64,000 nt of DNA from Candidatus Omnitrophota bacterium (GTDB lineage Bacteria > Omnitrophota > Gorgyraeia > Duberdicusellales > 4484-171). The stretch is from positions 32,001 through 96,000 of the forward strand of contig JAIPGM010000003.1 in NCBI GenBank assembly GCA_021735655.1, written 5' to 3'. Numbering within the stretch: position 1 is the stretch's first letter; every line of letters begins with the position of its first letter. A program made the position numbers and the translations under genes. Shown here one piece after another: positions 8,112 to 54,469 of the stretch. Below the pieces are notes generated by a model. The model saw nothing but the letters and a program-made list of their open reading frames with translations. It was not told the origin of the DNA and did no database searches.

Positions 8112-8122
8112 GATGTAATTAA

Positions 8123-9262: not shown

Positions 9263-9263
9263 T

Positions 9264-12298: not shown

Positions 12299-13051
12299 GT
12301 GAATATACAAATTTTTATAAAAAAAGTTAAAAATAAACTGAAAACATTTTGGTTGCAAATAGCTACCTTAAGGAGTGCTAATTTGCGTTGGTTGTTTCGG
12401 AATCGTTATTTGCGTATGGATGCTAATGTAACAACAAATCCGGTTGAGAGAAGGATTTTTCATATTGATCGATATAAATTCGCCGTGAATAAACTTAGAA
12501 AAGTTTATAGCGATACAAGGAATTTACTTATTGTTGATGTTGCTTGTGGTACAGGGTATGGCTCGGATATTTTAAAAAAAGTTAATCCGAAAAAAATAAT
12601 AGGTATTGATATTTGTCCTGAGACAGTTAAATATGCTCAAAAAAAATATGGAACGCATCATTGTATTTTTAATACTAGCGATGCTGTCGAAATGAATATT
12701 ATTAAATCAGGAACTGTCGATGTGGTCGTTTCATTTGAAACCATTGAGCATTTAGAGCAGCCGATAATTTTTTTGAAGAACGTAAAAAGGGTATTGAAGA
12801 ATAAAGGATGCTTAATTATTTCCACACCTAATAGTTGGGGAGAAACAAGAGACCATAGGTTTGATTATGATTATCAATTGCTGAAGACTCACCTTGAACA
12901 ATTCTTCACGATAGACTCTATGTATGTTCAAAATAGCGGAAGTATGAATTTATGGATGAATAGAGGTTTTCAGCGGCGGTTAATTCCAGTGAGTCCCGAT
13001 AACGTTAATGAGGCCGAATGTTTTATAGCCATAGCCAGAAATTATTTTTAA
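12299..13051 (+). CDS. Class I SAM-dependent methyltransferase
   Basis: Motif I LIVDVACGTGYGSDIL, and VVVSFETIEHL as a motif II/post-I region. GTG start at 12299; an alternative ATG lies at 12416. Confidence 0.7.
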   Translation: MNIQIFIKKVKNKLKTFWLQIATLRSANLRWLFRNRYLRMDANVTTNPVERRIFHIDRYKFAVNKLRKVYSDTRNLLIVDVACGTGYGSDILKKVNPKKIIGIDICPETVKYAQKKYGTHHCIFNTSDAVEMNIIKSGTVDVVVSFETIEHLEQPIIFLKNVKRVLKNKGCLIISTPNSWGETRDHRFDYDYQLLKTHLEQFFTIDSMYVQNSGSMNLWMNRGFQRRLIPVSPDNVNEAECFIAIARNYF

Positions 13052-28435: not shown

Positions 28436-28448
28436 TAAGGAGTAGACA

Positions 28449-30230: not shown

Positions 30231-31188
30231 TAAAGGACAAATTTTGATTAAGAAAAAAAACGTACTAGTTACTGGTGCTCGTGGATTCATTGGAAAAAAT
30301 ATTGTTGAACATTTCAAAGCTAACCTTTCAAACAATTATACTGTTTTTTCTCCCTATCATAATGAGTTAGAACTGCTTGATTCTCAAGTGGTTATTTCGT
30401 TTATTAAGAGTAAATCAATAGATCTTATTATTCATTGTGCTAATATTGGGGGATCACGTAAAACTGCCTACGATCAAGATCGTACTGATGTGGTATATAA
30501 AAATTTAGCGATGTTTTTTAATCTAGTCGGTGCAATGAATAAAGACACTCGAATGGTATTTTTTGGTAGCGGCGCAGAGTATGCCAGAGCCTATTATAAG
30601 CCCAAGATGAAAGAAGATTATTTCGATGAACACATACCGGAAGATAGCTACGGTTTTTCAAAATACGTATGTTCTAAGTATATAGAAAGTTCTGAGAAAA
30701 TAGTAAATTTGCGTCTTTTCGGAGTTTTTGGAAAGCACGAAGATTATGAGTTTAAATTTATATCTAATGCTATTGTTAAAAATTTATTAGGTTTACCAAT
30801 CACCATAAATCAAAATATTTATTTTGATTATTTGTATATAAACGATTTTTTAAAGATAGTTGAGTATTTTATAGATAAAATGCCTAAACAAAAGTTTTAT
30901 AACGCTGCTAGAGGCCAAACAATTGACTTGGTAACGATAGCTAAAGAAATTAATAAAGTTTCCGAAAAGCAGTCGGAGATAATTGTTAAACATGAAGGTT
31001 TGAATACCGAGTATAGTGCCGATAATTCAAGACTTTTAAAAGAAATCGGTAATTTTGACTTTACTCCTTTTGACCAAGCAATAAAGGAGTTGTATCTTTG
31101 GTATAAATCTAATTTGAATAAAATTAATAAAGCCAAAATTACCAAAGATGAATATATTAAGTATTGTCACATAGATAGCCAACAGTAA
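30223..31188 (+). CDS. NAD(P)-dependent sugar epimerase/reductase (extended SDR; possible 4-ketoreductase of the branched dideoxy pathway)
   Basis: VLVTGARGFIGKNI Rossmann motif and YGFSKYVCSK (YxxxK). Confidence 0.65.
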   Translation: MNNKGQILIKKKNVLVTGARGFIGKNIVEHFKANLSNNYTVFSPYHNELELLDSQVVISFIKSKSIDLIIHCANIGGSRKTAYDQDRTDVVYKNLAMFFNLVGAMNKDTRMVFFGSGAEYARAYYKPKMKEDYFDEHIPEDSYGFSKYVCSKYIESSEKIVNLRLFGVFGKHEDYEFKFISNAIVKNLLGLPITINQNIYFDYLYINDFLKIVEYFIDKMPKQKFYNAARGQTIDLVTIAKEINKVSEKQSEIIVKHEGLNTEYSADNSRLLKEIGNFDFTPFDQAIKELYLWYKSNLNKINKAKITKDEYIKYCHIDSQQ

Positions 31189-32498
31189 TGAATAACCAGA
31201 AGTTATTGCGAAAACAAATCCTTAAAAAGGTGAAGGACTTTCAAGTCAAAAGTCCAAAGTCTAAATTTGTTCCCGGCGAAACTTATATTAACTATGCTGG
31301 GCGTATTTTTGACCATGAAGAACTCATCAATTCAGTTGATGCTTCTTTAGATTTTTGGTTAACTTCTGGACGATTCGCTTGTGAGTTTGAGAAGGAGTTA
31401 GCAAGATTTTTAGGAATTAAACATTGCATGTTAACAAATTCCGGTTCTTCGGCCAATCTTTTAGCTATTTCAGCGTTAAAGTCACCGTTATTAAAGAAAC
31501 GAAGTTTGAAGGCAGGCGATGAAGTTATTACCACTGCTTGCGGATTCCCGACAACTTTAAATCCAATTTTACAAAATAATCTTGTTCCGGTTTTTGTTGA
31601 TTTGGAGTTGGGTACCTATAATATTGATGTTACTAAAATAGAGCGAGCAATTTCTAAGAAAACAAAGGCTATTTTTGTTGCTCATACCTTAGGTAACCCG
31701 GTTGAACTAGATGCAATTATGAAAATAGTTAAAAAGCATAATTTATTTTTTATCGAAGATAATTGCGACAGTCTAGGTTCTAAATATAATGATAAATATA
31801 CCGGCAGTTTTGGTCAAATTTCAACTTGTAGTTTTTATGCCAGCCATCATATCACTATGGGAGAGGGCGGAGCGGTTTTAACCAATGACCCTTTACTTCG
31901 CAAGATAATTCTTTCTTTACGCGATTGGGGCCGTGATTGTTTTTGTGAACCAGGCCGGGATAATAGTTGTGGTAAGCGGTTTTCTAAAAAGCAGGGTAAG
32001 CTCCCCTTAGGGTATGATCACAAGTATATATATTCACATATTGGTTATAATTTAAAAATTACTGATATGCAGGCAGCAATTGGTTTAGCACAACTTAAGA
32101 AACTTAAGAACTTTATTTCTATTCGCAGAAAAAACTTTGACTATCTTTATAAAAATTTATCACAATATGATAAGTATATTGCTTTTCCTAAAGTTAGCAA
32201 TAAGTCTAAGGTTAGCTGGTTTGGATTTCCTGTTTTGATAAAATCTGATGCGCCTTTTAAGCGGATTGAGCTAGTAAGGTACCTAGAGAAAAATAAAATT
32301 GCTACTCGTATGTTATTCGGAGGAAATTTAACTAAGCAACCGGCTTATCAAGGCATAAAATATAGAGTTTCCGGAAGCTTAAATAATACTAACTTAGTTA
32401 TGGACAATCTTTTTTGGATTGGTGTGTACCCAGGCATCACCAAAGATAAGCTTGATTATATAGCAAAAATATTCTCATACTTTTTTAAGAAATTATGA
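31188..32498 (+). CDS. rfbH: CDP-6-deoxy-D-xylo-4-hexulose 3-dehydrase (E1; DdhC/RfbH)
   Basis: DegT-fold protein of 436 aa in which the PLP-lysine position reads SFYASHHITMGEGG. The replacement of Lys by His is the hallmark of E1 PMP-dependent dehydrases. The other three DegT paralogues in this window keep the Lys (SFNGNK, SFYANK, SFYPGK). A CFCEPGRDNSCGKRF cysteine cluster is consistent with the E1 [2Fe-2S] site. Confidence 0.8.
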   Translation: MNNQKLLRKQILKKVKDFQVKSPKSKFVPGETYINYAGRIFDHEELINSVDASLDFWLTSGRFACEFEKELARFLGIKHCMLTNSGSSANLLAISALKSPLLKKRSLKAGDEVITTACGFPTTLNPILQNNLVPVFVDLELGTYNIDVTKIERAISKKTKAIFVAHTLGNPVELDAIMKIVKKHNLFFIEDNCDSLGSKYNDKYTGSFGQISTCSFYASHHITMGEGGAVLTNDPLLRKIILSLRDWGRDCFCEPGRDNSCGKRFSKKQGKLPLGYDHKYIYSHIGYNLKITDMQAAIGLAQLKKLKNFISIRRKNFDYLYKNLSQYDKYIAFPKVSNKSKVSWFGFPVLIKSDAPFKRIELVRYLEKNKIATRMLFGGNLTKQPAYQGIKYRVSGSLNNTNLVMDNLFWIGVYPGITKDKLDYIAKIFSYFFKKL

Positions 32499-37239: not shown

Positions 37240-38598
37240 ATGTTTTTTAAACCGAGAAAGAAAAAAGCATTTGTTATTGGCCTAGATTGTGCTCCGCCGA
37301 GACTTCTCTTTGATAAATTTAAAGATGAGCTGCCTAATTTCAAGATGATGCTAGATAAAGGGGTTCATTGTCCTATGCGTTCAGTGCATCCGCCGATTAC
37401 AATTCCAGCCTGGATGAGCATGTGCTCTGGCTTGGATGTTGGCGAGATTGGCGTTTATGGGTTTAGAACCCGAAAAGATAATTCTTATACAGAATTTGAT
37501 ATCTCTACTTCTAAAAAGTTTTCTCAAATCGATAAGATTTGGGATATTTTAGCAAAATTAAAAAAGAAAAGTGTTCTTGTAGGTGTTCCTCCAAGTTACC
37601 CAACTTATCATATTGATGGAGGTATGATTTCGGGATTTATTTGTCCTGACGCAGCCAGTAATTTTACTTATCCTGAAAGCTTAAAGGGTGAAATTGAAGA
37701 GTTAGTTGGAGAATATAAACTTGATGTGGTGTTTAGAACCGAAGATCGAGATAAGCTAATAAAATCTGCCTGGGAGATGACCGAGAAGAGATTCAAGGTT
37801 ATTGAGTACTTAATAAAAAATAAACAGTGGGATTTTTTTATGTTCGTTGAGATTGGCGTAGACAGAATTCAGCATGCTTTTTGGAAATATTATGATCCGT
37901 CACACCATCTTTATCAACCTGAGCATAAGTATAAAAACGTCATTTTCGATTACTATAAATTTATTGATCAAAAAGTTGGAAAGATTCTTTCAGTTTTGGA
38001 TAAAGATACTACTGTTTTTACAGTATCCGATCACGGGGCAAAGTCAATGAAAGGAGTTTTTTGTCTTAATGAATGGCTTATTGATAAAGGTTATTTAGTG
38101 TTAAATAAATATCCTGATAAGATAGCCAGCTTCAATCAGCTAGATGTTGATTGGCAAAAAACTCGGGCCTGGGGTTGGGGAGGCCATTGTGGAAGGATTT
38201 TTATTAATAAAAAGAACCGCGAAACTCAAGGGTTAGTTAGAGATTCTGAATATGAGAGTTTGCGCGACGGTCTAATTAAGGAGTTAGAAAATGAAACCGA
38301 TCCTTTAGGTAAACCTTGGAATACGAAAGTTTATAAGCCTAAGGATGTCTATAAAGTGTTAAATGGAACCCCTTCGGACCTTGTGGCTTATTTTGATGAC
38401 TTAGCATATAGGGGTGCAGGTACCGTAGGGCATAAAAAGATTTTTCTAGAAGAAAACGATACTGGTCCTGACGATGCCGCACATGATTGGCAAGGTGTAT
38501 TTATTGAGTATAGTCCTTTAAGTAAAAGTGCAGAAGAATTAAACCAAATAAGCATCCTTGATTTCAAAGATAGAGTATTAAAGAGCATGGGAATATGA
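37240..38598 (+). CDS. Alkaline-phosphatase-superfamily enzyme, type I phosphodiesterase/nucleotide pyrophosphatase (NPP, PF01663-like)
   Basis: VIGLDCAPPRLL...VHPPITIPAWMSMCSGLDVGEIGVYGF is comparable to the NPP nucleophile region (PTxTFPNHYxxVTGLYPESHGI). A distal metal-site motif VSDHGA is also present. Confidence 0.55.
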   Translation: MFFKPRKKKAFVIGLDCAPPRLLFDKFKDELPNFKMMLDKGVHCPMRSVHPPITIPAWMSMCSGLDVGEIGVYGFRTRKDNSYTEFDISTSKKFSQIDKIWDILAKLKKKSVLVGVPPSYPTYHIDGGMISGFICPDAASNFTYPESLKGEIEELVGEYKLDVVFRTEDRDKLIKSAWEMTEKRFKVIEYLIKNKQWDFFMFVEIGVDRIQHAFWKYYDPSHHLYQPEHKYKNVIFDYYKFIDQKVGKILSVLDKDTTVFTVSDHGAKSMKGVFCLNEWLIDKGYLVLNKYPDKIASFNQLDVDWQKTRAWGWGGHCGRIFINKKNRETQGLVRDSEYESLRDGLIKELENETDPLGKPWNTKVYKPKDVYKVLNGTPSDLVAYFDDLAYRGAGTVGHKKIFLEENDTGPDDAAHDWQGVFIEYSPLSKSAEELNQISILDFKDRVLKSMGI

Positions 38599-39696: not shown

Positions 39697-41565
39697 ATGG
39701 ATATTTTTATTATTGGAATATTGTGGGCTGCGGCGACTTTTTTTCTTTTTGGGGTCATTGTTGGGATAGGAATAAGTTTTCTAAATAGGTTTAATTTTTC
39801 CTTTATTGGAAACCTATGGTTTTATTTTCTGACCGGCCTTTCCTATATAGCTTATTTAGGCGTAAGAATTATACCCTTGGCTGGTTTGTTGGGATTAATA
39901 TTGGAGGGGTTGCTTGGCATATCAAGATCTGCAGTTATTTTAGTATATCTTGGCTGCACGATTAATCTTCTGACTTACTTTTTTGCCAAATGGTATATTA
40001 CTGGAAAAGAAATACCCTCGACCGTCATAAGTTTCATCCCGGTGGTTCTTTTGGTAATTTTTCGTGAAAGTTTTTCATTGAAAATTATTACTTCTTTGGG
40101 TGCGGTTTGGCTGAGCTTAGTAATTTCAATTAGCTTTCTGGCAGCTTTAATAAGAACTTTTTTTCGTAAGAAAACTACTGGCCAAAAAAGCCAAATTAAA
40201 CCTAATAATTCTTTAAAGCCGGAAGTCAACCAGGTTAATAAAAAAGTAGCTTTTATAGGATTAGATGGTTGCGATTGGCAGTTATTAAAGAGATTTATAG
40301 ATCAAGGTAAATTGCTTACTTTCCGAAGGCTTATTGACGGGGGGGCGTCAGCTAGGCTTAAAACTATTCAGCCGACTCTCTCGCCTTTAATTTGGAACTC
40401 TATACTTACTGGCAAATCGCCTTCCGATCACGGTATCGCCCATTGGTATAAAACTAAATTTCCCCTTCTGCCTCCAGTCGTAGGGGATATTGTCCATCCG
40501 CGCTATTGCCGTTCGAAGCGGATTATTTTATGGTTAATAAAGAAAAATCTGATTAGAAGAATTCCTTTTTCAACCGAGGATAGAGGAGTTAAGGCCATTT
40601 GGAATATATTATCTGATTACGATAAGAGCTCTATTAACGTAGGGTGGATTTTTAGCTGGCCAGCTGAAAAGATTAGGGGGGTTCAGGTAAGTTGGCTTTT
40701 TTATCCTTTTGAGGAGGCAGCTCAAGGTTTTAAAAGATTTAGCTCAAGCAAATTGCCTCAAAGAGTCTATCCGGAAAGTCTATTTGCTGATCTTGAGCGT
40801 TTCATTGTTAGGCCTTCTGATTTAGCCGATGCTGAGTTACGCAGTATGCATTTTACAACCGAAAGTATTAATCCTGAGAAACTTTATGTTGATAAGTTAA
40901 GTCCCTGGGATTATACTAAAGACAAAACTTTTTTACAGGTTAGCAGTTATTTGCTCGACCAAAATAAAGAGTTTGATTTTTTCTCTTTATATCTTTATGG
41001 AATTGACGCCGTTTGTCATAATTACTGGCCATTTTCTAAAGATGCAAGCAACAATCAAAAGCATAAAAACGAGCTACTTTCAGTTAGCGACAGCGAAAAA
41101 TTTAAAAAAGAGGCTGAATCGTTTGATAAATGTATTTTGCGTTATTATGAATATTTAGATAGTGAAATTGCTAAACTTTTAAGTAAGCTTGGTCAAGATT
41201 GCAATATAGTCATAGCTTCTGACCACGGATTTAATTTAGACGGTAGTGAACATGAGAATGCCCCCGATGCGGTGTTGATTGCTTATGGACCTTATATCGC
41301 TAAGGGTAAAAACTTAAGTTCTCTTTCGATATATGATGTTTTGCCTACGGTTTTATGCTTGTTGGGCTTACCATTGGCAAATGATATGCCGGGCAGGGTA
41401 GCTAAGGAGTTGTTTAGCGATCAATTTTTGAATGCTTTTCCTTTTAACTATATTGATAGTTACGAACACACTAGCGATAAGTTAAATGATAGGAGCTTTA
41501 AATTGGATGAGGCTAGCCGCAAAGGTATAGAAGAACGCCTTAGGTCCTTAGGTTATATAGATTAA
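39697..41565 (+). CDS. Membrane-anchored alkaline-phosphatase-superfamily (NPP-type) enzyme
   Basis: About 170 aa of N-terminal TM helices, then VAFIGLDGCDWQLL...PTLSPLIWNSILTGKSPSDHGIAHW and ASDHGF. It is a paralogue of the 37240 gene. Confidence 0.55.
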   Translation: MDIFIIGILWAAATFFLFGVIVGIGISFLNRFNFSFIGNLWFYFLTGLSYIAYLGVRIIPLAGLLGLILEGLLGISRSAVILVYLGCTINLLTYFFAKWYITGKEIPSTVISFIPVVLLVIFRESFSLKIITSLGAVWLSLVISISFLAALIRTFFRKKTTGQKSQIKPNNSLKPEVNQVNKKVAFIGLDGCDWQLLKRFIDQGKLLTFRRLIDGGASARLKTIQPTLSPLIWNSILTGKSPSDHGIAHWYKTKFPLLPPVVGDIVHPRYCRSKRIILWLIKKNLIRRIPFSTEDRGVKAIWNILSDYDKSSINVGWIFSWPAEKIRGVQVSWLFYPFEEAAQGFKRFSSSKLPQRVYPESLFADLERFIVRPSDLADAELRSMHFTTESINPEKLYVDKLSPWDYTKDKTFLQVSSYLLDQNKEFDFFSLYLYGIDAVCHNYWPFSKDASNNQKHKNELLSVSDSEKFKKEAESFDKCILRYYEYLDSEIAKLLSKLGQDCNIVIASDHGFNLDGSEHENAPDAVLIAYGPYIAKGKNLSSLSIYDVLPTVLCLLGLPLANDMPGRVAKELFSDQFLNAFPFNYIDSYEHTSDKLNDRSFKLDEASRKGIEERLRSLGYID

Positions 41566-42618: not shown

Positions 42619-43071
42619 ATGAAAGAACGCATAGAACATAAAGGTGAACTTTTAGGCCTTATTATAAGAGGAGACTATAATCCTTCTCAGACTGAGTTTT
42701 TTACACCTAATGAATTTAAGCAACAGGTTGGATATATATTTTACGATACCGGTCAGGAGGTGGCAGCTCATATTCATCATAATATGCCGCGTAGCCTTGA
42801 GGGTACTTCTGAAGTTTTAATTCTTAAAACCGGCCATGCCCGGATTGATTTTTATTCTCAAGATAAACAATATTTAGAAAGCCGGGAGATATTTCCCGGT
42901 GATATTATTATTTTAGTTTTTGGTGGGCATGGTATTCATTTTTATGAACCAAGTTTACTTCTGGAAATAAAACAAGGTCCTTATATCGGAGTTCAGGAAA
43001 AGGAAAGGTTTCCCTCGGCTTACCCAGAGCAAGAAAAGCTAAAGAAGGATGGTGAACCATTATCCCCGTAA
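42619..43071 (+). CDS. Cupin-fold protein (possible NDP-sugar ketoisomerase, FdtA/QdtA-like)
   Basis: 150 aa with a VAAHIHHNMP...E and ...VFGGHGIHF two-motif cupin signature. It lies immediately upstream of a DegT aminotransferase, the arrangement seen for 3,4-ketoisomerase/transaminase pairs. Confidence 0.4.
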   Translation: MKERIEHKGELLGLIIRGDYNPSQTEFFTPNEFKQQVGYIFYDTGQEVAAHIHHNMPRSLEGTSEVLILKTGHARIDFYSQDKQYLESREIFPGDIIILVFGGHGIHFYEPSLLLEIKQGPYIGVQEKERFPSAYPEQEKLKKDGEPLSP

Positions 43072-43079
43072 ATGAACCA

Positions 43080-44222
43080 TTGCTGCCGGGCAATGAATTA
43101 AAGTACGTTTCCGAGTGTCTTAAGACTAATTGGATTTCTTCTTCTGGCAGTTTTCTTGAGCGTTTCGAATCCGAATGGGCAAAGTATTGCGGTCAAAAAT
43201 ATGGTATTGCTGTTTGTAACGGAACGGTTGCTTTAGAGTTAGCTGTAGATGCTTGCAATTTTCCTAAGGGAAGTGAAATAATTCTACCTAGTTTTACTAT
43301 TATTTCTTGCGTCCAGGCGGTTACTAAAGCTGGTTGTAAGCCAGTGCTTGTTGATTGTGATTCGGAAACTTACTGTATGCAAGTAAGCCGGATAGAAGCA
43401 AAAATTACTGACCGGACCGTGGCAATTATGCCGGTACATATGTACGGACATCCAGTTGAAATGAAGCCAATAATGGACATTGCTCAGAAACACGGTCTTG
43501 TTGTTATTGAAGATGTGGCTCAGACCCAGGGAGGTGAATATCGAGGAAAAAAATGCGGTAGTTTTGGTAAGCTTTCCTGTTTTTCATTCTATGCAAATAA
43601 AAATATAACTACTGGCGAAGGAGGTATGGTTTTAACCTCTGATACTGTAATTGCTCAACGTTTGCGTAAGCTCAAAAATCTTTGTTTTTTAAAATCACCA
43701 AGATTTTTGCATTACCGGCTAGGCTATAACTATCGAATGACTAATATCCAAGCTGCTTTAGGCTTAGCCCAATTAGAGAATATCGATAGGTTCATTGAAC
43801 GTAAAATTGACATGGCCAAAAAGTATTCGCAGGCCTTAGTAAATTTACCGCTTCAATTACCTATGGAGCATAAATGGGCCAAGAATGTTATTTGGATGTA
43901 TAATGTGCTCCTTAAGGAAGATAAACAAAGCCAGGAGTTTTTTGAAAAAGACTGGAAAAATATAAGTCCAGAAGAGTATTTTAGATGGCCGGCATACAAG
44001 CTAATGAAAGTTTTAGAGCAGGCTGGAGTACAAACTCGTCCCTTTTTTATTGGAATGCATGAGCAGCCTGTGTTTCATGAGCAGGGGCTGTTTAAGGGTG
44101 AGAGATACCCGGTTACTGAAAAAATTGCTCGTTCTGGTTTTTATCTTCCTAGTGGCCAAGCGATAACTGATTTTCAGATAGATGAAGTTTCGCGAGCTTT
44201 AAAGGAGATATTTAATGAATAA
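43080..44222 (+). CDS. DegT/DnrJ/EryC1 family PLP-dependent aminotransferase (ArnB-like)
   Basis: CNGTVALELAV, DVAQTQG, and SFYANKNITTGEGG with the PLP Lys. Apparent TTG start at 43080. Confidence 0.75.
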   Translation: MLPGNELKYVSECLKTNWISSSGSFLERFESEWAKYCGQKYGIAVCNGTVALELAVDACNFPKGSEIILPSFTIISCVQAVTKAGCKPVLVDCDSETYCMQVSRIEAKITDRTVAIMPVHMYGHPVEMKPIMDIAQKHGLVVIEDVAQTQGGEYRGKKCGSFGKLSCFSFYANKNITTGEGGMVLTSDTVIAQRLRKLKNLCFLKSPRFLHYRLGYNYRMTNIQAALGLAQLENIDRFIERKIDMAKKYSQALVNLPLQLPMEHKWAKNVIWMYNVLLKEDKQSQEFFEKDWKNISPEEYFRWPAYKLMKVLEQAGVQTRPFFIGMHEQPVFHEQGLFKGERYPVTEKIARSGFYLPSGQAITDFQIDEVSRALKEIFNE

Positions 44223-44967
44223 ACATTTATCACTTTCAGTAATTTTGCCTACTTACGATGAGGCTGAAAATATAAGACCTTTGATAGAAAGCATAGCTGA
44301 GGCCACTGAGCATCTTCAGGAAATAATAGTTGTTGATGATGATTCTCCTGATGGGACGGCTGATGTTGTTGAAGATATGATCGAAAGCGGAAAATACCCT
44401 TTTCTAAAACTGGAAAGAAGGCTTAAAAACCCTAGCTTAAGAAATAGTATTTGGAGAGGCATAGAGCTAGCTAGCGGAGATACTGTTGGCTGGATGGATT
44501 GCGATTTTTCCATGCCACCTAGATACTTTCCGGTACTTCTATCTTTAGTAAATGCAGATTATGATATAGCTTTAGGTTCTCGTTTTGTTTTAGGGGGTAC
44601 TTGGAGAGAAGAAACTTTGGAGGATTCAGATACGATTTTAGCGGCTTCAGGTAGCAGGCTGATGAATTTTTTTATTCAGATTTTTCTTGACCACAGAGTT
44701 AGGGATTATACCAGTGGTTTTGTAGTTGCCCGGCGCGATATTTTTAAACGGATTAAATTAAGGGGTGATTATGGTGAGTATTTCATTGATTTTATATATC
44801 GGGCCTTAAAGTTAAGGTATCGGGTGGTTGAAATTCCCTATGTTTGGGCTTCCAGAAGAAGGGGATATTCTAAAACAGGTAATAACCTTAAGGATTATTT
44901 TAAGCGAGGAAGAAAGTATATAGCTACAGTCTTGCGTTTGTTGCTTACGCGAAATTATGAATATTAA
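44215..44967 (+). CDS. GT2 polyprenyl-phosphate sugar transferase (ArnC/DPM1-like)
   Basis: LSVILPTYDEAENIRPLIESIAEATEHLQEIIVVDDDSPDGT. The short soluble GT2 form is typical of Und-P/Dol-P sugar synthases. Confidence 0.65.
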   Translation: MNKHLSLSVILPTYDEAENIRPLIESIAEATEHLQEIIVVDDDSPDGTADVVEDMIESGKYPFLKLERRLKNPSLRNSIWRGIELASGDTVGWMDCDFSMPPRYFPVLLSLVNADYDIALGSRFVLGGTWREETLEDSDTILAASGSRLMNFFIQIFLDHRVRDYTSGFVVARRDIFKRIKLRGDYGEYFIDFIYRALKLRYRVVEIPYVWASRRRGYSKTGNNLKDYFKRGRKYIATVLRLLLTRNYEY

Positions 44968-46396
44968 AAAAAATATGAAACCTAAAGTTTTATTAATTAG
45001 TCCTCCTTTTGAGCATGAAGAAGAGTCAGTAGGCAAAACTAAAAGCATTATAAAGGTGTTAAATATTGTGCCGCCTTTAGGGATTGCTTATATTGCTGCG
45101 GTTTTAGAAAGAATCGGGATAGAAGTAAAAATAGTCGATTGTGCTACCGGAATTTCTTTCGACAGTCTTTTTAATAGCATAAAAATAGAATCTCCGGATG
45201 TAGTTGGTCTCACAGTTACTACTCCGGCATTTCTCAAAGCCAAAAAGGTAGCAGCTTTTGTCCGAAAAAATCTTCCTCAAGCAAAGATTTTGATCGGAGG
45301 CGCTCAGGTAACAGCTTTACCTAAAGAGACCCTAGAGACCGGTCTTTTTGATATTGGAATAATCGGTGAGGGAGAGTTAATTATTGAGCAGTTATTTAAA
45401 AATTATAAAAATGAAGGATTTGAGAATTTAAAAGAAGTTCCTGGTATTATTTATAGAGATGATCAAGGCATTCATCAAAATGAAAAACAGGCTTTTGTTG
45501 AGGATTTAGATTCTTTACCACTCCCGGCAAGGCATCTTTTGCCACATCCTAAATTTTATCGTCCTACTCCAGCTTCTTGTCGTAAAGTCCCTTATGTTGT
45601 GATTATGACTTCTCGTGGTTGTCCTTCAAAATGTACTTTTTGTGATCGAAAAATATTCGGTGAACGCTGCCGGATGAGAAGTGTAGCTAATATTTTTGAA
45701 GAGATAGAAGAGGTAGTATCAAAATATGGAGTAAAAGAGATAAGGTTTTTTGATGATACTTTTACTTTGGATAAAAAAAGAGTTTATAAAATTTGCGATG
45801 AATTTGAAAAGCGAAAACTTAAGCTTGCTTGGACCTGTCTTACCAAAGCAGCCTGCGTGGATGGTCCGCTACTAAAGCGAATGAGGCAGGTTGGTTGTTG
45901 GCAAGTTTTATATGGTTTTGAATCTGGTGATGACCGAGTCCTCAAACTGCTTAAAAAAGGCAATACTGTAGAGTTGAACAAAAGAGCAGTTCGTTTGACT
46001 AAAGAAGCTGGCCTTGAAGTGAGAGGGGATTTTATCGTTGGAACCCCTGGTGAAACTTGGGAGAGTTTAGAGAGAACCGTGCGTTTTGCTATAGATATGG
46101 ATTTAGATTACGCCCATTTTAATAAATTCATACCTTTTCCGGGAACAGAATTGTACCAGAATCTTAGGCAGCAGGGATATTCTTTTGATTTTTCTAAGAG
46201 TACTATATTAGACCACACTCAAATTCATTATGTTAATGAAGGTATGACTGCGGAGGGGTTTTCTCGATTTTTAGATAAAGCTAATAAAAGGTTTTACTTA
46301 AGATGGAAATATATATTAAAAAGACTATTTTCTATCCGAACTTTTCACCAGTTAAAAGGCCAAATAAACGGATTTTTTGCTATTTTTGAGATTTAA
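44957..46396 (+). CDS. B12-binding-domain radical SAM enzyme (class B rSAM, methyltransferase-like)
   Basis: N-terminal cobalamin-binding-like Rossmann domain (KVLLISPP...LGIAYIAAVLERIGIEVKIVDCATG), then CPSKCTFCDRK (CxxxCxxC) and a rSAM core. Confidence 0.75.
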   Translation: MNIKKNMKPKVLLISPPFEHEEESVGKTKSIIKVLNIVPPLGIAYIAAVLERIGIEVKIVDCATGISFDSLFNSIKIESPDVVGLTVTTPAFLKAKKVAAFVRKNLPQAKILIGGAQVTALPKETLETGLFDIGIIGEGELIIEQLFKNYKNEGFENLKEVPGIIYRDDQGIHQNEKQAFVEDLDSLPLPARHLLPHPKFYRPTPASCRKVPYVVIMTSRGCPSKCTFCDRKIFGERCRMRSVANIFEEIEEVVSKYGVKEIRFFDDTFTLDKKRVYKICDEFEKRKLKLAWTCLTKAACVDGPLLKRMRQVGCWQVLYGFESGDDRVLKLLKKGNTVELNKRAVRLTKEAGLEVRGDFIVGTPGETWESLERTVRFAIDMDLDYAHFNKFIPFPGTELYQNLRQQGYSFDFSKSTILDHTQIHYVNEGMTAEGFSRFLDKANKRFYLRWKYILKRLFSIRTFHQLKGQINGFFAIFEI

Positions 46397-47897
46397 AATG
46401 AAAAAAGACGTTGTTTTAATTTTACTTTGTTTTTTTGCAGTGGTAATCCTATTTACTAATTTAGGAGGCACCTATCTTTGGCAAGATGAAGCCACAACCG
46501 CAGTTTTAGGTAGGAACACGTTAAACTTTGGAATCCCTAAGGCTTTTGATGGAAAAAATCTTATTCTCAACATCTATGAAGATCCTTGTGTCGATAAGGG
46601 TTGGAAGTATGCTCCCTGGCTTCAATTTTATCTTGTGGCTGGATCATTTTGGTTATTAGGAGAAACCACCTTTGCTGCTCGCTTGCCTTTTGCTATATTT
46701 GGCGTTGGTGCTTTACTGTTGTGCTTTTTATTGGCCGAGCGGCTGTTTAAAAATAGATTAGTTTCAAGAATTGCTTGCGCCTTCATGGCTTTTTCCAGTA
46801 TTTTTTTCCTCTATATGCGTCAAGCCAGGTGGTATCCACTTACCACTTTTTTCACCCTTTGGCTGCTAGTTTCGTACTTAGATTTAGTCAAAAGTAAGAA
46901 GAAAGCTATTTTAGGTTTTGTGCTTAGCGCTGTATTACTTTTTCACTCTAATTACGGAATTTTCTTTTCCGTATTCTTAGGTCTAGCTTCTCATTTCTTT
47001 ATTTTTAACAGAAGTAACATTAAGGCGATTGGGATAAAAAAGATAGTATTTTGTCTTTTTATGATTACCATATTAACTTTACCTTCTTTATTGTATCTTG
47101 GTAGTGTGGAGTATAGCGGAAAGATAACCTTCGAGCGGACAGAGGACCATTTAGAATTCTATTTTCGTTCACTTAATAAGTATATTTTTCCTGTAGGATT
47201 TTTATTCTTCAGTTTAACTTTTTTTAGCTTCTTTAGGAAAAAAGTTTTTCCAATATTGGGCAAACCGTTAGATAAGCAAAACCTTTGGCTTTTGATTTGT
47301 GTATTTATTTCTACTATTTGTTTTCTTCTTTTGGCCGATGAGAGGCAATTAAGATATCTCGTGCATTTATTGCCAATTTTTTCTATTATCCTAGGAGTTT
47401 TAATTGTCGGATGGTTAAAGATAAATAAAATAGCTGCGGTTTTACTTTTTGTTATTATTTGTTTTACAAATATATTTAATCGGGGAAGTTTCTCTCATAA
47501 TAAACTATCGATTCATCCGGTTAATATAGTTTATGAATTAACCCATGATTATGACGGTCCGGTAGAAGGAATAGTAAAGTTTTTAAATCGCCAGGCAAAG
47601 CCAACAGATACGGTTAAGCTAATTTATGGTGATTATGCTACGATTTTTTATACTGATCTTCGTGTCGACAATAGTTGCTTTAAGTGTAAAACCTTTCCAG
47701 AATGGATTGTTATCAGAGATGGTTGGTTTCCTTTGAAGAATTTAGACAAAGATTATCTTAGAGAGATAAATGAGAGATATCAAAAAATAATACTGGATTA
47801 TCCTGACATAATGTGGGAGAATCGGCCCGACCCTGGTTATCATAAATTCAAAACAGTATCAGATTGGCCGCCGGTTGTAATATATAAGAAAAAATGA
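46377..47897 (+). CDS. ArnT/PMT-family GT-C glycosyltransferase (GT39/GT83-like)
   Basis: LLCFFAVVILFTNLGGTYLWQDEATTAVLGRN in the first periplasmic loop carries the conserved DE-type motif of ArnT/PMT. Multiple TM helices are followed by a C-terminal soluble domain. Confidence 0.7.
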   Translation: MLFLRFKMKKDVVLILLCFFAVVILFTNLGGTYLWQDEATTAVLGRNTLNFGIPKAFDGKNLILNIYEDPCVDKGWKYAPWLQFYLVAGSFWLLGETTFAARLPFAIFGVGALLLCFLLAERLFKNRLVSRIACAFMAFSSIFFLYMRQARWYPLTTFFTLWLLVSYLDLVKSKKKAILGFVLSAVLLFHSNYGIFFSVFLGLASHFFIFNRSNIKAIGIKKIVFCLFMITILTLPSLLYLGSVEYSGKITFERTEDHLEFYFRSLNKYIFPVGFLFFSLTFFSFFRKKVFPILGKPLDKQNLWLLICVFISTICFLLLADERQLRYLVHLLPIFSIILGVLIVGWLKINKIAAVLLFVIICFTNIFNRGSFSHNKLSIHPVNIVYELTHDYDGPVEGIVKFLNRQAKPTDTVKLIYGDYATIFYTDLRVDNSCFKCKTFPEWIVIRDGWFPLKNLDKDYLREINERYQKIILDYPDIMWENRPDPGYHKFKTVSDWPPVVIYKKK

Positions 47898-48916
47898 GCT
47901 GCGACATTATTATTCCGGTTTGGAATCTGATTGATTTTACAAGAGATTGTATAGAGAGCGTATTGAGCCAGACAGAATACCCTTTTCATTTGATTGTTAT
48001 TGATAACGGCAGCGATAGTGAAACTAAAGAATATTTATTCAAGTTGGCTCAACAAAGAAAGAACGAAATTACCCTGATTAGAAATGAAAATAATCTAGGA
48101 TTTATTAAAGCAACTAATCAGGGAATAAGAGCCTCTAAGGCCCCTTATTTATGTCTTTTAAATAACGATACAATAGTCACTAAGGGTTGGCTTAGAGAAA
48201 TGGTTAAATTGGCAACTAGCAGAGAAGATATAGGCATAGTCAATCCTAGTAGTAATACTTTAGGTTGTAATCCAAAGCGCGGAGATTCTTTGGAGTCGTT
48301 TGCCGAGGAGCGGAAATCTTACTCGGGAGAATATTCTGAACTAGCCTGGGCAACTGGATTTTGTATGTTGATTAAACGTAAAATTATTGAAGAGGTAGGG
48401 TTGCTTGATGAAGTATATGGAATGGGTAATTTCGAAGACGCTGATTTTTGCAAAAGAGCTCAAAAACAAGGTTATCTATCTGTTTGCGCCAAGGCTGCCT
48501 ATGTTCATCATCAAGAAAGACGTTCATTTATAAGATTTAAGAAATTCAACCAGAACTTTGAGGACAATAAACAGACCTTCTATGCTAAATGGGGAAGCTT
48601 AAAGCGCATACTTTATGTTTTGAATAAAGAAGACCATCTTTATATAGAAAGAATAGGAGCCGAAGCTTTAAAATTGGCCCGTGAGGGAAATATTGTTTGG
48701 ATTTTTTCAAAAGGCAGAGATAAGTTAGAGATTAGAAAGCACTCTAATATTTATGTCTATAATCGCCCAAAGCCTTTTTTTAATTTAACTAATTTTTTGA
48801 TTATTTTGAAACGTAAGAAGAAATTTGATAAGATATACGTAAATAGCAAGAGTTATGCTAAAAGGTTAAACAGTTTTAAATATATTCATAAAGCAGAGGT
48901 GATCTGCGCAGAATAA
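47894..48916 (+). CDS. Family 2 glycosyltransferase with C-terminal extension
   Basis: IIIPVWNLIDFTRDCIESVLSQTEYPFHLIVIDNGSDSET and an NND (DxD-like) motif. Confidence 0.7.
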   Translation: MSCDIIIPVWNLIDFTRDCIESVLSQTEYPFHLIVIDNGSDSETKEYLFKLAQQRKNEITLIRNENNLGFIKATNQGIRASKAPYLCLLNNDTIVTKGWLREMVKLATSREDIGIVNPSSNTLGCNPKRGDSLESFAEERKSYSGEYSELAWATGFCMLIKRKIIEEVGLLDEVYGMGNFEDADFCKRAQKQGYLSVCAKAAYVHHQERRSFIRFKKFNQNFEDNKQTFYAKWGSLKRILYVLNKEDHLYIERIGAEALKLAREGNIVWIFSKGRDKLEIRKHSNIYVYNRPKPFFNLTNFLIILKRKKKFDKIYVNSKSYAKRLNSFKYIHKAEVICAE

Positions 48917-51709: not shown

Positions 51710-52807
51710 ATGAAGCTATTTTTTAAATCTTGGCAGAAAAAAAGTAAAAAGAAGAGAATTCTTTTTGCTGGAGTCTGCCATGCTAATTTCATACAGTTTA
51801 GGCCAATTTATGAGATCCTTAAGCAGGATCCAAGAGTTGAAATTTTATTCTCTGGTATGTATCAAAGTAAAGACCGGCCGCGTGAACTCTATAAACCTTT
51901 TAATATAGATAAGAAATTCATCATAAGAGAAAAGTTCGCAAAAACTTTGAGTTTTGACATCTATATTAGCCCAGATTATCACATGATTGACAATAACTAT
52001 TCTTCAACTATTCAGTTTTTTCACACCACTTCTTTTAGAAATTTCTCAGTTAGTGAAGAGGCAAAAAGCTTTGATCAGATTTTTTTAATTGGGCCGTACA
52101 TGAAGCGTAAGTTTATCGAGGCAGGTATTTTTGAAGTTGATGATCCGAGATTAAAAGAAGTAGGCATGCCGCAAACAGATGCTCTTTTAGATAATATCGA
52201 CACTGGTTTGTCTGAGAGACTTGGCTTAGATAAGAGTCTTCCGACTATACTTTACGCTCCAGTCTGGGCGCCGATAGAGAGCTTTCTTGAAGATGTTCAA
52301 ACAACACTTAAAACTTTAACCTCAATTAAGGCTAATCTTCTTCTTAAGTTGCACGATAAATTTTATTATCAACAGGTAAATAAAATTAGATGGCGGGAGT
52401 TTTTGAATTTGGTGCTAAGCGAGAATAAGAATGTACATTTAATAGATGATTTTGATATTATACCTTACATGAAAATTAGTGATTTGCTTGTCAGCGACGT
52501 TAGTGCTGTTGTACATCAGTTTTCTATATTAGATAAGCCAATAGTATGCATGAAGGTAGATGTTGATGAGTTTAAAAAGTTCTGGCCAGGGCTTGATCAT
52601 AAAGCCTATTTAGATCGCGCGGTAATAGAAGCTTCTCAAGGAGAGGCTTTAAAAGAGGCAGTTTTGGGAGAACTTGCTAATCCTGGCAATTTGAGTCAAA
52701 AACGGATAGCCATGAGTAAAGAGTATTTTTATAATATTGGGTTTTCTGCAAAATGCGCAGTTTCGCAAATTTATCAGTCTTTTAATCTAAAGAATACAGA
52801 TGAATAA
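51710..52807 (+). CDS. CDP-glycerol glycerophosphotransferase family protein (TagB/TagF-like)
   Basis: The TILYAPVWAP segment resembles the TagF-family ...LYAPT[WF]R core. It is followed by a GT-B-like C-terminal half. Confidence 0.5.
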   Translation: MKLFFKSWQKKSKKKRILFAGVCHANFIQFRPIYEILKQDPRVEILFSGMYQSKDRPRELYKPFNIDKKFIIREKFAKTLSFDIYISPDYHMIDNNYSSTIQFFHTTSFRNFSVSEEAKSFDQIFLIGPYMKRKFIEAGIFEVDDPRLKEVGMPQTDALLDNIDTGLSERLGLDKSLPTILYAPVWAPIESFLEDVQTTLKTLTSIKANLLLKLHDKFYYQQVNKIRWREFLNLVLSENKNVHLIDDFDIIPYMKISDLLVSDVSAVVHQFSILDKPIVCMKVDVDEFKKFWPGLDHKAYLDRAVIEASQGEALKEAVLGELANPGNLSQKRIAMSKEYFYNIGFSAKCAVSQIYQSFNLKNTDE

Positions 52808-53903
52808 AAAGCCGCTTTCCTCAAAAAATAGTTTCTTAGTTAAACTGAAAGTCAGCCAAGAAATCCTTATGGATGCCGAGCAAATAGCTATAGGTGGGTA
52901 CGCTCCAGTTGATGGTTTTATGGGAAAGGCTGACTTTGAATCAGTTTTGAATAATATGCGCCTTGTAAAAGGTGATGTTTGGACTTTGCCAATAGTGTTA
53001 GATATAAGTAAAAAAGAAGCAGCATCAATTAAAATCGGGGATGAAATATTGCTTGGTGACGGCCAGGATCAGGAAAATTTTCTTTTTTCTGTGGAAGATA
53101 TTTATGAACATGATAAATCTTTGTATTGCGATAAGGTTTATGGTACTAAAGATGTAGCTCATTCAGGAGTAGCAAAGGTGCTTAAGATGGGAGAGGTCCT
53201 TGTAGGGGGCCGGGTTATATCGGTTTTAAATAATTTTGATTTTGATATGCGTAAATTCACCATGACCCCGAAAGAGACAAAAGCCCAGTTTGAAAAAAAT
53301 AATTGGAAAACGGTTGTTGCTTTTCATACCCGGAATGTGGTGCACAGAGCCCATGAGTATCTTCAGCGCTGTGCTATGGAATATGCCGATGGAATTTTGA
53401 TCCATCCTGCGGTTGGCTTTACAAAACCCGGTGATTTCAAGAAAGAGCTTATAATAAAGGGCTATCAAAGTTTAATTGATAACTATTATCCAAAAAATAA
53501 AGCTCTTCTCTCGGCTTTGGGCATAGGCATGAAATTTGCCGGGCCAAGAGAAGCTGTATTTCATGCCTTGGTGCGGAAAAATTATGGTTGTACACATATA
53601 ATTATTGGTAGAGATCATGCTGGCGTAGGCGGATACTATGAGAAGTATGCCGGACATAAGATATTTTCTAGTTTGCCATCTTTGGGCATAACCCCTTTAT
53701 TATTTAAGGGACCGTTTTATTGCAATAAATGTGAAGCTATGGCTACCGAAAGCACCTGCTCGCATGATGAGTCTTATAGGTCAGAAGTCAGCGGAACATT
53801 AGCTCGTAAATTCATAAAGGAAAAGAAAAAGCTCCCTAAGTGGCTGATGCGTCCTGAAATCGCAAACTTGCTTGAAGACCTCGGTGAAAGCGTTTTTTCT
53901 TAA
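52800..53903 (+). CDS. sat: Sulfate adenylyltransferase (ATP sulfurylase)
   Basis: FHTRNVVHRAHEYL (QTRN...HRAH motif) and IIIGRDHAGVGGYY (GRDHAG motif) are diagnostic of ATP sulfurylase. No APS-kinase domain is fused or adjacent. Confidence 0.8.
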   Translation: MNKKPLSSKNSFLVKLKVSQEILMDAEQIAIGGYAPVDGFMGKADFESVLNNMRLVKGDVWTLPIVLDISKKEAASIKIGDEILLGDGQDQENFLFSVEDIYEHDKSLYCDKVYGTKDVAHSGVAKVLKMGEVLVGGRVISVLNNFDFDMRKFTMTPKETKAQFEKNNWKTVVAFHTRNVVHRAHEYLQRCAMEYADGILIHPAVGFTKPGDFKKELIIKGYQSLIDNYYPKNKALLSALGIGMKFAGPREAVFHALVRKNYGCTHIIIGRDHAGVGGYYEKYAGHKIFSSLPSLGITPLLFKGPFYCNKCEAMATESTCSHDESYRSEVSGTLARKFIKEKKKLPKWLMRPEIANLLEDLGESVFS

Positions 53904-53926
53904 AACTTAAATAAGGAGTAAACAAG

Positions 53927-54469
53927 ATGTTAATAATTTCACAACATGCAAGATTGTTGCATATTCCTTTTCCTGATACTGCTGTATTTAGGGTAAATGT
54001 TGCTTGGATTAAAAGTCAGGAAGAGTTATTCAGCTTACTAAAGCAAATTAAGAATGATGTATTTTTGGATTTTCCTGAAGGGCGATTCAAACCGCCGATC
54101 CCTATTTTAGGTTTAGACGATTTATTGGGAGCCATGGATAGGTTTGACAATATAAAATATTTTGGGGTGACCAATGTGACAGCAGCCGAACAAATTATTG
54201 AAATGAGAAAGAAAGTTCCTCAGAGAGTAATATTAATACCTAAGGTGGAGTCAAGAGAAGGAATAGACAATTTAGAAAAGATACTTGGCCAGCTAGAAAA
54301 GGGTGAAAAATTTATAATGCTAGATAAAGAGGATCTATATACTGATTTAAAGGAGCATAAGGAATTATTTGAACAATATGTTCAGTTGGTAAAAGATAAA
54401 TGCAGGAAAAATAATATTAGCGTGCTTGAGTTGCAAGGTGTGATATTTGCAGCGAATGAAGACTTATAA
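53927..54469 (+). CDS. Hypothetical 180-aa protein; LIPKVESREGIDNLEKIL resembles the active-site strand of the pyruvate-kinase/HpcH TIM-barrel superfamily
   Basis: ORF with an AAGGAG RBS. The motif is comparable to pyruvate kinase IISKIEN.EGV.N.DEIL, but the protein is too short to be a complete barrel. Confidence 0.3.
   Translation: MLIISQHARLLHIPFPDTAVFRVNVAWIKSQEELFSLLKQIKNDVFLDFPEGRFKPPIPILGLDDLLGAMDRFDNIKYFGVTNVTAAEQIIEMRKKVPQRVILIPKVESREGIDNLEKILGQLEKGEKFIMLDKEDLYTDLKEHKELFEQYVQLVKDKCRKNNISVLELQGVIFAANEDL

Follow-up and report, generated by a model that had tools for sequence, protein, structure and literature searches.

Gene order at the radical SAM locus

The stretch of DNA analysed here, hereafter the window, comprises 64,000 bp (positions 32,001 to 96,000 of the forward strand) of contig JAIPGM010000003.1 in assembly GCA_021735655.1 of a Candidatus Omnitrophota bacterium. 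Nearly all of it is taken up by a glycan-assembly cluster of ~57 kb and ~36% GC encoded on a single strand, after which follow xseA, pnp, ftsK and a rodZ-like gene. We focused on one gene of this cluster, which codes for a putative class B (cobalamin-type) radical S-adenosylmethionine (SAM) enzyme of 479 aa, and on the genes that surround it. The gene, its domains and its neighbours are arranged as follows.

42619..43071, + strand: small cupin-like protein of 150 aa with a weak WbuC-cupin NCBIfam match
43080..44222, + strand: sugar aminotransferase of the DegT/DnrJ/EryC1 family (hereafter DegT), pyridoxal phosphate (PLP)-dependent and perosamine-synthase-like (PF01041, E=2e-108)
44215..44967, + strand: small soluble family 2 glycosyltransferase (GT2) of 250 aa, of the polyprenyl-phosphate sugar synthase type, like dolichol-phosphate mannose synthase (DPMS), ArnC and GtrB (PF00535, E=6e-28)
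44957..46396, probable start 44975, + strand: class B (cobalamin-type) radical SAM enzyme, predicted from Pfam domains and an AlphaFold2 model
45047..45394, + strand: B12-binding Rossmann domain of this enzyme, residues 31-146 (PF02310, E=5e-22)
45620..45643, + strand: CxxxCxxC motif of its [4Fe-4S]/SAM cluster (C222, C226 and C229), then D230-R231
46398..47897, + strand: polytopic membrane glycosyltransferase of the GT-C fold, ArnT/PMT-like (GT39-type), from Foldseek matches and the domains of its homologues
47894..48916, + strand: second GT2, 340 aa, overlapping the stop codon of the GT-C gene (PF00535, E=1e-29)

The best homologues of the radical SAM gene score E=0, with identity reaching 92%, and over 3600 proteins match it at E<=1e-20. 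Homologues this strong rule out a chance or artefactual open reading frame (ORF), and the locus is also present in an independent assembly. The genes around it are packed tightly. The stop codon of the DegT gene (44220-44222) overlaps the start of the small GT2 gene (ATG at 44215), which is preceded by AAGGAG 6 nt upstream. The GT2 stop codon (44965-44967) is in turn overlapped by 11 nt if the radical SAM gene begins at ATG 44957, or is followed after 7 nt by an alternative ATG at 44975, which corresponds to Met7. Since the N-terminus read from Met7 agrees with the N-termini of the homologues (MxKVLLI), among which the 92% identical relative is 473 aa long, alignment makes 44975 the more likely start. 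Downstream, the radical SAM stop codon (46394-46396) is separated by 1 nt from the ATG of the GT-C gene (46398). Translation from this ATG gives a protein of 499 aa, 100% identical to an NCBI entry from a Candidatus Omnitrophica metagenome-assembled genome (MAG) annotated as 'glycosyltransferase family 39 protein', and the TTG at 46377 proposed in the ORF list is probably not the start. The radical SAM gene is thus tightly packed between a GT2 gene on one side and a GT-C gene on the other, as an earlier note made from the sequence of this DNA had described.

Cobalamin motifs and family placement of the enzyme

To place the enzyme, we scanned species-representative genomes, in which at least 249 places encode a relative. 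Eighty of these were fetched and examined, and 78 relatives were used to score residue conservation. Neighbouring ORFs were clustered without preselection, and neighbourhood counts were restricted to the 52 loci for which 3 kb or more was available on each side; a partner was counted when it lay within 5 kb of the radical SAM gene.

Pfam analyses aligned the B12-binding domain over model positions 5-120 of 121 and placed the Radical_SAM domain (PF04055, E=4e-27) C-terminal to it, at residues 218-378. Residues 222-232 read CPSKCTFCDRK, so that both the B12-binding Rossmann domain and the radical SAM core named in the earlier note are borne out by profile searches. The three cysteines of the cluster motif are invariant in 78/78 relatives, and D230-R231 is likewise invariant in the family. 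The AlphaFold2 model (predicted local distance difference test score, pLDDT, 88.4; predicted template modelling score, pTM, 0.87) was matched by the solved structures of AprD4 (TM-score 0.75), CysS (0.73), TsrM (0.71), TokK (0.69) and MgmA (0.66), as well as by OxsB, and as modelled the enzyme has a generic class B fold.

Whether a member of this class binds cobalamin matters because AprD4 and ArsL, which share the class B similarity network, bind none. In the structures of OxsB, TsrM and TokK, the hallmarks of base-off cobalamin binding are a G-x-S/T-x-X motif after strand beta3, a Gly-Gly pair on beta4 and a Gly-Glu pair at the start of helix alpha5 (PMC9204698). The enzyme carries G84-x-T86-x-T88, G114-G115 and G139-E140 at these places. 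Among the 78 relatives, G114 and G115 are kept in all, G84, T/S86, G139 and E140 in 77 each, and T88 in 71, which lends strong support at the level of sequence to a functional cobalamin site throughout the family. The site has no His ligand, as is usual for the class. Among the relatives discussed below, BchE has canonical cobalamin motifs as well, and in HpnJ the GG and GE motifs retained by the family are missing in their canonical form.

Searches against curated families and solved structures brought out only distant relatives. The closest PDB sequences were AprD4 (6fd2, E=1e-25), then MgmA/9CCB, then OxsB, and the alignment with AprD4 begins at residue 154, leaving the N-terminal domain unaligned. 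The two best NCBIfam matches were HpnJ (TIGR03471), at 224.7 bits for a cut-off of 577.6, and BchE (TIGR02026), at 207.9 bits for a cut-off of 481.35; these were also the top two families in two further members tested, which scored 189-204 bits on the HpnJ model, the three members together spanning 189-229 bits. The next matches, far under threshold, were ApyD, the Sden_1168 and PhpK P-methyltransferases and the glutamine methylase of methyl-coenzyme M reductase (MCR). Enzymes of ladderane lipids and of ribosomally synthesized and post-translationally modified peptides (RiPPs) appeared at 110-170 bits, and the AprD4 family (NF033070) scored 109.3 bits for a cut-off of 500. As every score is below half its cut-off, we rejected membership in HpnJ, BchE, AprD4, PhpK/Sden_1168, MgmA (QCMT), the ladderane enzymes or any other NCBIfam family.

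The enzyme is ~29% identical to genuine hpnJ products (Mycetohabitans) and to those of plasmid-borne bchE genes flanked by bchJ, puhE or hemN. We built a neighbour-joining tree of 84 sequences with outgroups taken from plasmid records, namely hpnJ, bchE and two unnamed radical SAM genes of glycan clusters. The family formed one clade, to which the nearest outgroup was HpnJ together with an HpnJ-like enzyme from a Lawsonia glycan cluster, with BchE further out; built without bootstrap support and without the known methylases GenD1, GenK, MoeK5 and Fom3, this tree speaks for the distinctness of the family and not for its chemistry. Several residues invariant in the 78 members are absent from HpnJ and BchE (D230-R231, C294, C314-W315-Q316, R356, D358, H387-x-N389-K390 and H420) and are candidates for substrate binding, judging from the alignment. 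No hopanoid genes (hpnI, hpnK or shc) occur in the window, and no bacteriochlorophyll or photosynthesis genes surround the radical SAM gene. Taken together, these comparisons place the enzyme, which is probably soluble and cytoplasmic, in a distinct and previously uncharacterised class B clade. In the literature that we searched, including the Omnitrophota genome paper, we found no article on this family, nor on any class B radical SAM enzyme in pathways of envelope nucleoside diphosphate (NDP)-sugars or polyprenyl-phosphate sugars.

The Lawsonia sequence is itself worth recording. It is encoded at 7998-9461 of plasmid 1 of Lawsonia intracellularis (NC_008012.1, L090) and reaches 375.8 bits on the HpnJ model, for the same cut-off of 577.6. 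The plasmid cluster around it comprises GT2 genes, GalE, a SIS-domain protein, a second radical SAM enzyme and five class I methyltransferases, and contains no hopanoid genes. This HpnJ-like enzyme apparently works on a non-hopanoid glycoconjugate in a pathogen.

The earlier note had named placement among BchE-like, non-methylating enzymes as an outcome that would speak against its proposal of a methylase acting on a sugar. No named family does stand closer than HpnJ and BchE. The distance to both is large, however, and HpnJ is itself an enzyme of a lipid-linked sugar, so that the placement weakens the proposal and does not refute it. It also suggests another reaction, in which the GT2 would attach an amino sugar to polyprenyl phosphate or some other membrane lipid and the radical SAM enzyme would then rearrange it, for instance by ring contraction to a head group of the aminocyclitol type. 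HpnJ, which forms the cyclitol ether of hopanoids, is a class B radical SAM enzyme for which lipid-linked glucosamine has been proposed as substrate, and hpnJ adjoins the GT2 gene hpnI, as the gene studied here adjoins a GT2 gene. HpnJ is also both the top NCBIfam match and the nearest characterised outgroup of the distance tree. The likeness nevertheless stops at 29% identity and a score far under 577.6; unlike the family described here, HpnJ belongs to an hpnI-hpnJ-hpnK hopanoid context, has a degenerate GG/GE region and is a proposed non-methylase. The gene neighbourhoods described below bear on this reaction too.

BchE, the anaerobic Mg-protoporphyrin IX monomethyl ester cyclase, resembles the family in being the first or second best curated match of every member tested and in its canonical cobalamin motifs. 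It differs in its tetrapyrrole substrate, in the 29% identity and the score under the cut-off, and in the photosynthesis gene context that is lacking here.

Conservation of the module and identity of its partners

The DegT gene lies two genes upstream of the radical SAM gene, and its product keeps the PLP lysine motif SFYANK (residue 169). Its best NCBIfam matches, the LegC family and PseC, both fell under their cut-offs, and among solved structures it is closest to GDP-perosamine synthase (3bn1/3dr4, E ~2e-81), ArnB being matched at E=7e-45. For the small GT2, in which no transmembrane (TM) segment is predicted, a family profile run against the PDB matched the DPMS of P. furiosus (5mlz, E=5.6e-56), ArnC (~1e-26 to 1e-28) and GtrB (3e-24). 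These matches agree with the synthase of undecaprenyl- or dolichyl-phosphate sugars that the earlier note had suggested, and point to an enzyme of the polyprenyl-phosphate sugar synthase type.

The membrane protein encoded downstream was harder to recognise by sequence. It scored 25.8 bits on PMT_2, just short of the cut-off of 26.1, and most of its homologues bear PF13231 or PF02366; it has 8 predicted TM segments and an invariant W-x-D-E in the first loop. A profile search against PDB sequences returned only ArnT, at E=0.4, and its identity was settled by the fold search. With an AlphaFold2 model of pLDDT 86.3, the best Foldseek match was ArnT (5f15/5ezm), followed by ALG9/12, PglB/STT3, Emb and Pmt, and the top 33 matches were all polyprenyl-phosphate-dependent GT-C enzymes, as expected for the GT-C transferase that the earlier note had placed here.

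All 80 relatives examined come from uncultured bacteria and archaea. The bacterial hosts are Omnitrophota, Planctomycetota and other members of the Planctomycetes-Verrucomicrobia-Chlamydiae (PVC) group, Desulfobacterota, Anaerolineae, Elusimicrobia and Myxococcota, and the archaeal hosts are Nano-, Woese-, Bathy-, Alti- and Hydrothermarchaeota and Methanosarcinales. Identity within the clade ranges from 40 to 92% across these bacterial and archaeal phyla. The gene is therefore retained in orthologous loci across phyla, whereas its absence from them would have told against the earlier proposal. In the 52 loci as a whole, DegT was found 43 times, a large polytopic membrane protein 38 times, the small GT2 29 times and a dehydratase or epimerase of the short-chain dehydrogenase/reductase (SDR) type 4 times; a nucleotidyltransferase was found in 0/52. 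The loci divide into four clades.

Clade A (the window's own), 23 loci: DegT 20, small GT2 19, large polytopic membrane protein 19, GT-C of the window's type 6, methyltransferase 6, cupin 5, SDR 2
Clade B, 18 loci: DegT 14 (of a divergent type), small GT2 3, large polytopic membrane protein 9, SPASM-type radical SAM enzyme 13
Archaeal clade, 5 loci: DegT 3, small GT2 4, large polytopic membrane protein 5
Deep clade, 6 loci: DegT 6, small GT2 3, large polytopic membrane protein 5

The radical SAM enzyme and DegT thus form the core of the system, which the small GT2 joins in the window's clade and in archaea. DegT co-diverges with its partner, scoring 300-350 bits in clade A and 100-140 bits in clade B. 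The exact GT-C protein is lineage-specific, and some GT-C-like protein is usually present, be it PMT_2, YfhO or one of several unassigned proteins with 9-10 TM segments. Orthologues of 53-56% identity in MAGs of Desulfobacterota and Chloroflexota lie beside DegT, the small GT2, a class I methyltransferase and GT-C-like membrane proteins, and the Desulfobacterota version is a six-gene island amid unrelated genes. Complete genomes with the module are those of an Omnitrophota member (CP070780.1), a member of Thermodesulfobacteriota (CP129479.1) and one of Anaerolineales (CP070811.1). The sugar and lipid-carrier context proposed in the earlier note is accordingly upheld, by comparative genomics as well as by fold evidence.

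The other neighbours recur less regularly. Initially unlabelled ones proved to be Wzz-like, arylsulfotransferase-like and TPR/GDSL proteins, PMT_2 GT-C proteins, AsnB-like amidotransferases, Wzy_C ligases and MurB; no hidden oxidoreductase was found among them. The cupin-like protein of the window matched the WbuC-cupin NCBIfam model at E=8.6e-4 (19 bits for a cut-off of 42) and had neither a Pfam match nor a PDB sequence relative. Its homologues lie upstream of DegT in 8 loci, from Omnitrophota and some archaea, and we regard it as an accessory that the module has in certain lineages only. A ketoisomerase of the FdtA/QdtA type was considered for it and is unsupported by these searches. Homologues of the second GT2 (47894..48916) were found near the radical SAM gene only in a few loci of Omnitrophota and Planctomycetia (L009, L012, L014 and L083), which makes it a lineage-specific neighbour outside the conserved core.

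Clade B (L071, L063, L042 and others) constitutes a distinct three-enzyme module. Its radical SAM enzyme, 44-50% identical to that of the window, lies beside a divergent, PseC-like DegT and, in 13/18 loci, a SPASM-type radical SAM enzyme, the small GT2 being mostly absent. We looked at the SPASM enzyme as a possible dehydrogenase of the BtrN type; its closest solved relative is the sugar decarboxylase BlsE, a weak match at E=7e-9.

The counts bear on the HpnJ-like rearrangement raised above. HpnJ needs its amino sugar on a lipid, and the presence of the GT2 in 19/23 clade A loci would suit such a substrate. On the other hand, most clade B loci have the radical SAM gene without the GT2, and a carbocyclic product on a phosphate carrier would presumably not be transferable by a GT-C enzyme, yet GT-C-like proteins accompany the module. 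We consider this reaction improbable.

They bear equally on a target other than a sugar, such as the chain of a polyprenyl or membrane lipid (as for HpnP, HpnR and the ladderane enzymes) or a protein or peptide, in which case the linkage to glycan genes would be a mere operonic convenience. Many class B radical SAM enzymes do act on lipids, tetrapyrroles and peptides, the ladderane and RiPP enzymes figure in the NCBIfam list at the scores given above, and extra B12-binding paralogues are often clustered with the gene (9/23 clade A loci). But the linkage to a sugar aminotransferase spans four clades and two domains of life, with co-divergence, and neither precursor-peptide nor lipid-synthesis genes recur in the neighbourhoods, so that we regard a target of this kind as very improbable.

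Four further features of these neighbourhoods deserve mention. The paralogous B12-binding radical SAM genes, which code for proteins of 453-559 aa with ~25-30% identity to the family member beside them (L014, L011, L018, L017 and L007), number up to three extra per locus; several radical tailoring steps may take place on one glycan. A small Cys-rich protein of 100-123 aa, with a weak match to the putative Fe/Zn-binding CxxCxxCC (YkgJ-like) family, is encoded directly beside the radical SAM gene in 8 loci (L018, L020, L036, L051 and L074 among them) and is absent from the window; it may serve the enzyme specifically, by donating electrons or carrying a cluster. A glutamine amidotransferase of the AsnB type, like asparagine synthase, lies near the gene in L020, L024 and L063 and may amidate a uronic acid or other carboxylate on the same sugar. 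Finally, in four loci of the PVC group (L030, L032, L033 and L040), an arylsulfotransferase-like gene directly follows the triad of GT2, DegT and radical SAM genes, and the window's own cluster holds an ATP sulfurylase gene together with an unassigned ORF of 180 aa (52800-54469). These genes hint at sulfated surface glycans.

Candidate reactions of the enzyme and their implications

The conservation of the pair and the nature of its partners make it highly probable that the enzyme tailors a sugar, within a module for the synthesis of a modified amino sugar, its attachment to polyprenyl phosphate and its extracytoplasmic transfer. The earlier note had left the substrate as either a polyprenyl-linked sugar or the NDP-sugar. 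The pathway it had in mind fits our data; it had overlooked DegT, which is found in 43/52 loci against 29/52 for the GT2. As DegT accompanies the enzyme in all clades and most clade B loci lack the GT2, action at the NDP-sugar stage appears somewhat likelier than action at the lipid-linked stage.

From the architecture, motifs, partner identities and conservation of the module we infer the order of the steps, the nucleotide-sugar stage, the methyl transfer and the acceptor as follows. DegT would convert an NDP-keto sugar, probably of the GDP-4-keto-6-deoxyhexose type, into an NDP-amino sugar. The radical SAM enzyme would then tailor this amino sugar by methylating an unactivated ring carbon; SAM would supply both the radical and, through methyl-cobalamin, the methyl group. 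The DPMS/ArnC-like GT2 would load the finished sugar onto polyprenyl phosphate, and after flipping, the ArnT-like GT-C enzyme would move it to an acceptor of the envelope at the membrane's outer face.

Of these steps, the chemistry of the radical SAM enzyme is the one proposed most tentatively. The earlier note had taken methylation for granted; we rank C-methylation first, as the single best candidate at odds somewhat short of even, because the cobalamin motifs are kept, most class B enzymes characterised so far are methylases, and the gentamicin pathway offers a precedent. In that pathway the oxidoreductase GenD2 and the transaminase GenS2 are followed by the N-methyltransferase GenN and by GenD1, a cobalamin-dependent radical SAM C-methylase acting next to the new amine. 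The trio of DegT, class I methyltransferase and B12-binding radical SAM enzyme found in L001 and L007 mirrors GenS2, GenN and GenD1. GenD1 thus methylates the carbon beside an amine installed by a transaminase, with a class I N-methyltransferase acting in between, and the Desulfobacterota and Chloroflexota versions of the module hold the corresponding trio. GenD1, GenK, Fms7 and MoeK5 all tailor sugars by cobalamin-dependent radical SAM chemistry. They differ from the present enzyme in acting on aminoglycoside or moenomycin intermediates of actinomycete secondary metabolism rather than on precursors of envelope glycans, and our comparison with them is one of descriptions, not of sequences. The gentamicin set, moreover, has its own oxidoreductase, GenD2, which the module lacks, and the methyltransferase of the trio is absent from the window.

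Several observations weigh against methylation. The nearest curated families, HpnJ and BchE, are non-methylases and the nearest solved structure, AprD4, is a dehydratase, although all three are distant. No methylase stands in the tree, and within class B no sequence signature parts methylases from non-methylases (PMC9204698). The lower-face position of the predicted cobalamin site is a small Thr, where TsrM has a bulky Arg and TokK a Trp, a difference to which we attach little weight, and there are no genes for cobalamin synthesis or uptake within the 64 kb window. Lastly, the oxidoreductase or dehydratase that DegT requires is almost never part of the module, an SDR being found in 4/52 loci. 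The other three DegT genes of the window each adjoin a gene for an SDR or a Gfo/Idh/MocA enzyme; the DegT gene linked to the radical SAM gene adjoins the latter alone.

This missing enzyme fits a different reaction, in which the radical SAM enzyme would itself make the keto sugar. It would oxidise or dehydrate a common NDP-hexose and replace the NAD-dependent SDR, and the keto(-deoxy) product would be transaminated by DegT. Two variants can be envisaged, oxidation of an alcohol as by BtrN and dehydration of a 1,2-diol as by AprD4, with cobalamin perhaps acting as an electron sink. DegT requires a keto substrate, and yet SDR genes are few, a nucleotidyltransferase is found in none of the 52 loci and the remaining recurrent neighbours are not oxidoreductases; even the minimal Desulfobacterota cassette, amid its unrelated genes, holds no other redox enzyme. 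The pairing with DegT is also the most conserved association of the family. Among enzymes of known function, AprD4, which removes the C3' oxygen in apramycin biosynthesis, is the best solved match by both sequence and fold, acts on an amino sugar and yields a 4'-oxo sugar, and BchE, at the top of the profile matches, installs a keto group. Known radical SAM oxidases and dehydratases of sugars, AprD4 among them, work without cobalamin, however, whereas the cobalamin motifs are strongly conserved here. Such chemistry is presumably done cheaply by NAD-dependent dehydratases, even in anaerobes, and GDP-4-keto-6-deoxymannose and similar sugars can be provided in trans; three SDR dehydratases are encoded elsewhere in the window. 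In clade B the separate SPASM-type enzyme could be the oxidant, leaving another role to the B12-binding one. We consider generation of the keto sugar unlikely, though it is the main rival of C-methylation.

Whatever its radical step, the module resembles the Arn pathway (ArnB, ArnC and ArnT), PpgS/Rv3779 and systems of the GtrA/B/C type, in which a DegT-made NDP-amino sugar, a GT2 that charges polyprenyl phosphate and a GT-C enzyme acting outside the cytoplasm succeed one another. The equivalog cut-offs of the Arn proteins are not reached here (ArnB 200 bits against 631; ArnC 53 against 529), and neither an ArnA-like dehydrogenase/formyltransferase nor an ArnD-like deformylase is adjacent in the window or recurrent in the 52 loci. 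We know of no Arn-type lipid-carrier system that contains a radical SAM enzyme. As the module also occurs in archaea and in monoderm-type Chloroflexota, lipid A is not its general acceptor.

The remainder of the glycan cluster holds other genes of interest. At its start (263-1848), a pair of HisF-like and HisH-like (glutamine amidotransferase) genes precedes genes for a CBS-domain nucleotidyltransferase, a 4,6-dehydratase, a DegT protein and a cytidylyltransferase; this arrangement resembles a pathway of the legionaminic or pseudaminic acid type with an amidino or amido modification. A gene for a protein like 3-dehydroquinate synthase, of the sugar-phosphate cyclase type (8123-9262), lies between those of a CMP-type cytidylyltransferase (7449-8111) and an SDR (9264-10025), which is unusual for a polysaccharide locus and could point to a carbocyclic component or to an unusual one of the nonulosonic or octulosonic acid type. 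The gene for a SPASM-type radical SAM enzyme of 318 aa (13062-14018), only weakly similar to that of clade B, has as neighbours a class I methyltransferase gene (12299-13051) and two large ORFs that match nothing in Pfam (10092-12260, 722 aa; 14029-15828, 599 aa). Genes for a DmpF-type acetaldehyde-dehydrogenase-like protein, an HMGL/DmpG-like aldolase and a thiamine pyrophosphate-dependent, acetolactate-synthase-like enzyme (26502-30230) sit between sugar dehydratase/epimerase genes and a DegT gene of RfbH size (31188-32498), and resemble machinery for a two-carbon branched-chain sugar of the yersiniose type. Further on, two proteins of the type I phosphodiesterase/nucleotide-pyrophosphatase family (37240-38598 and 39697-41565, the second with an N-terminal membrane region) flank a GT9 heptosyltransferase-like gene; transfer or trimming of the glycan's phospho-substituents is a possible role for them.

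Reactions are known for only a few dozen members of the very large family of class B radical SAM enzymes, and to our knowledge every member with an established sugar substrate belongs to an antibiotic pathway. The earlier note had spoken of an undescribed substrate class for the family. This was overstated, since HpnJ with its proposed lipid-linked glucosamine, MoeK5 in moenomycin biosynthesis, and GenK, GenD1 and Fms7, which methylate aminoglycoside sugars, already link the class to sugars; what holds is that a role on NDP- or polyprenyl-phosphate sugars of the envelope was not met with in the searched literature. In many uncultured anaerobes, bacterial and archaeal, the enzyme described here probably modifies a sugar of the cell surface. 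Orphan B12-binding radical SAM enzymes abound, and this clade is unusually tractable because its partner enzymes limit the candidate substrates: the reactions of a Per-like aminotransferase, a DPMS-like glycosyltransferase and an ArnT-like GT-C enzyme are readily predicted and leave a short list, in which GDP- or other NDP-linked keto and amino sugars and their polyprenyl-phosphate derivatives are the likely entries. Once solved, the reaction would give a function to a widespread orphan family and reveal a modified amino sugar on the surfaces of Omnitrophota, Desulfobacterota, Chloroflexota, PVC bacteria and DPANN archaea. If the enzyme is a methylase, B12-dependent C-methylation would reach into primary envelope glycan synthesis; if it makes the keto sugar instead, it would represent a new radical route to amino sugars for lipid-carrier surface glycosylation in many anaerobic bacteria and in DPANN and other archaea.

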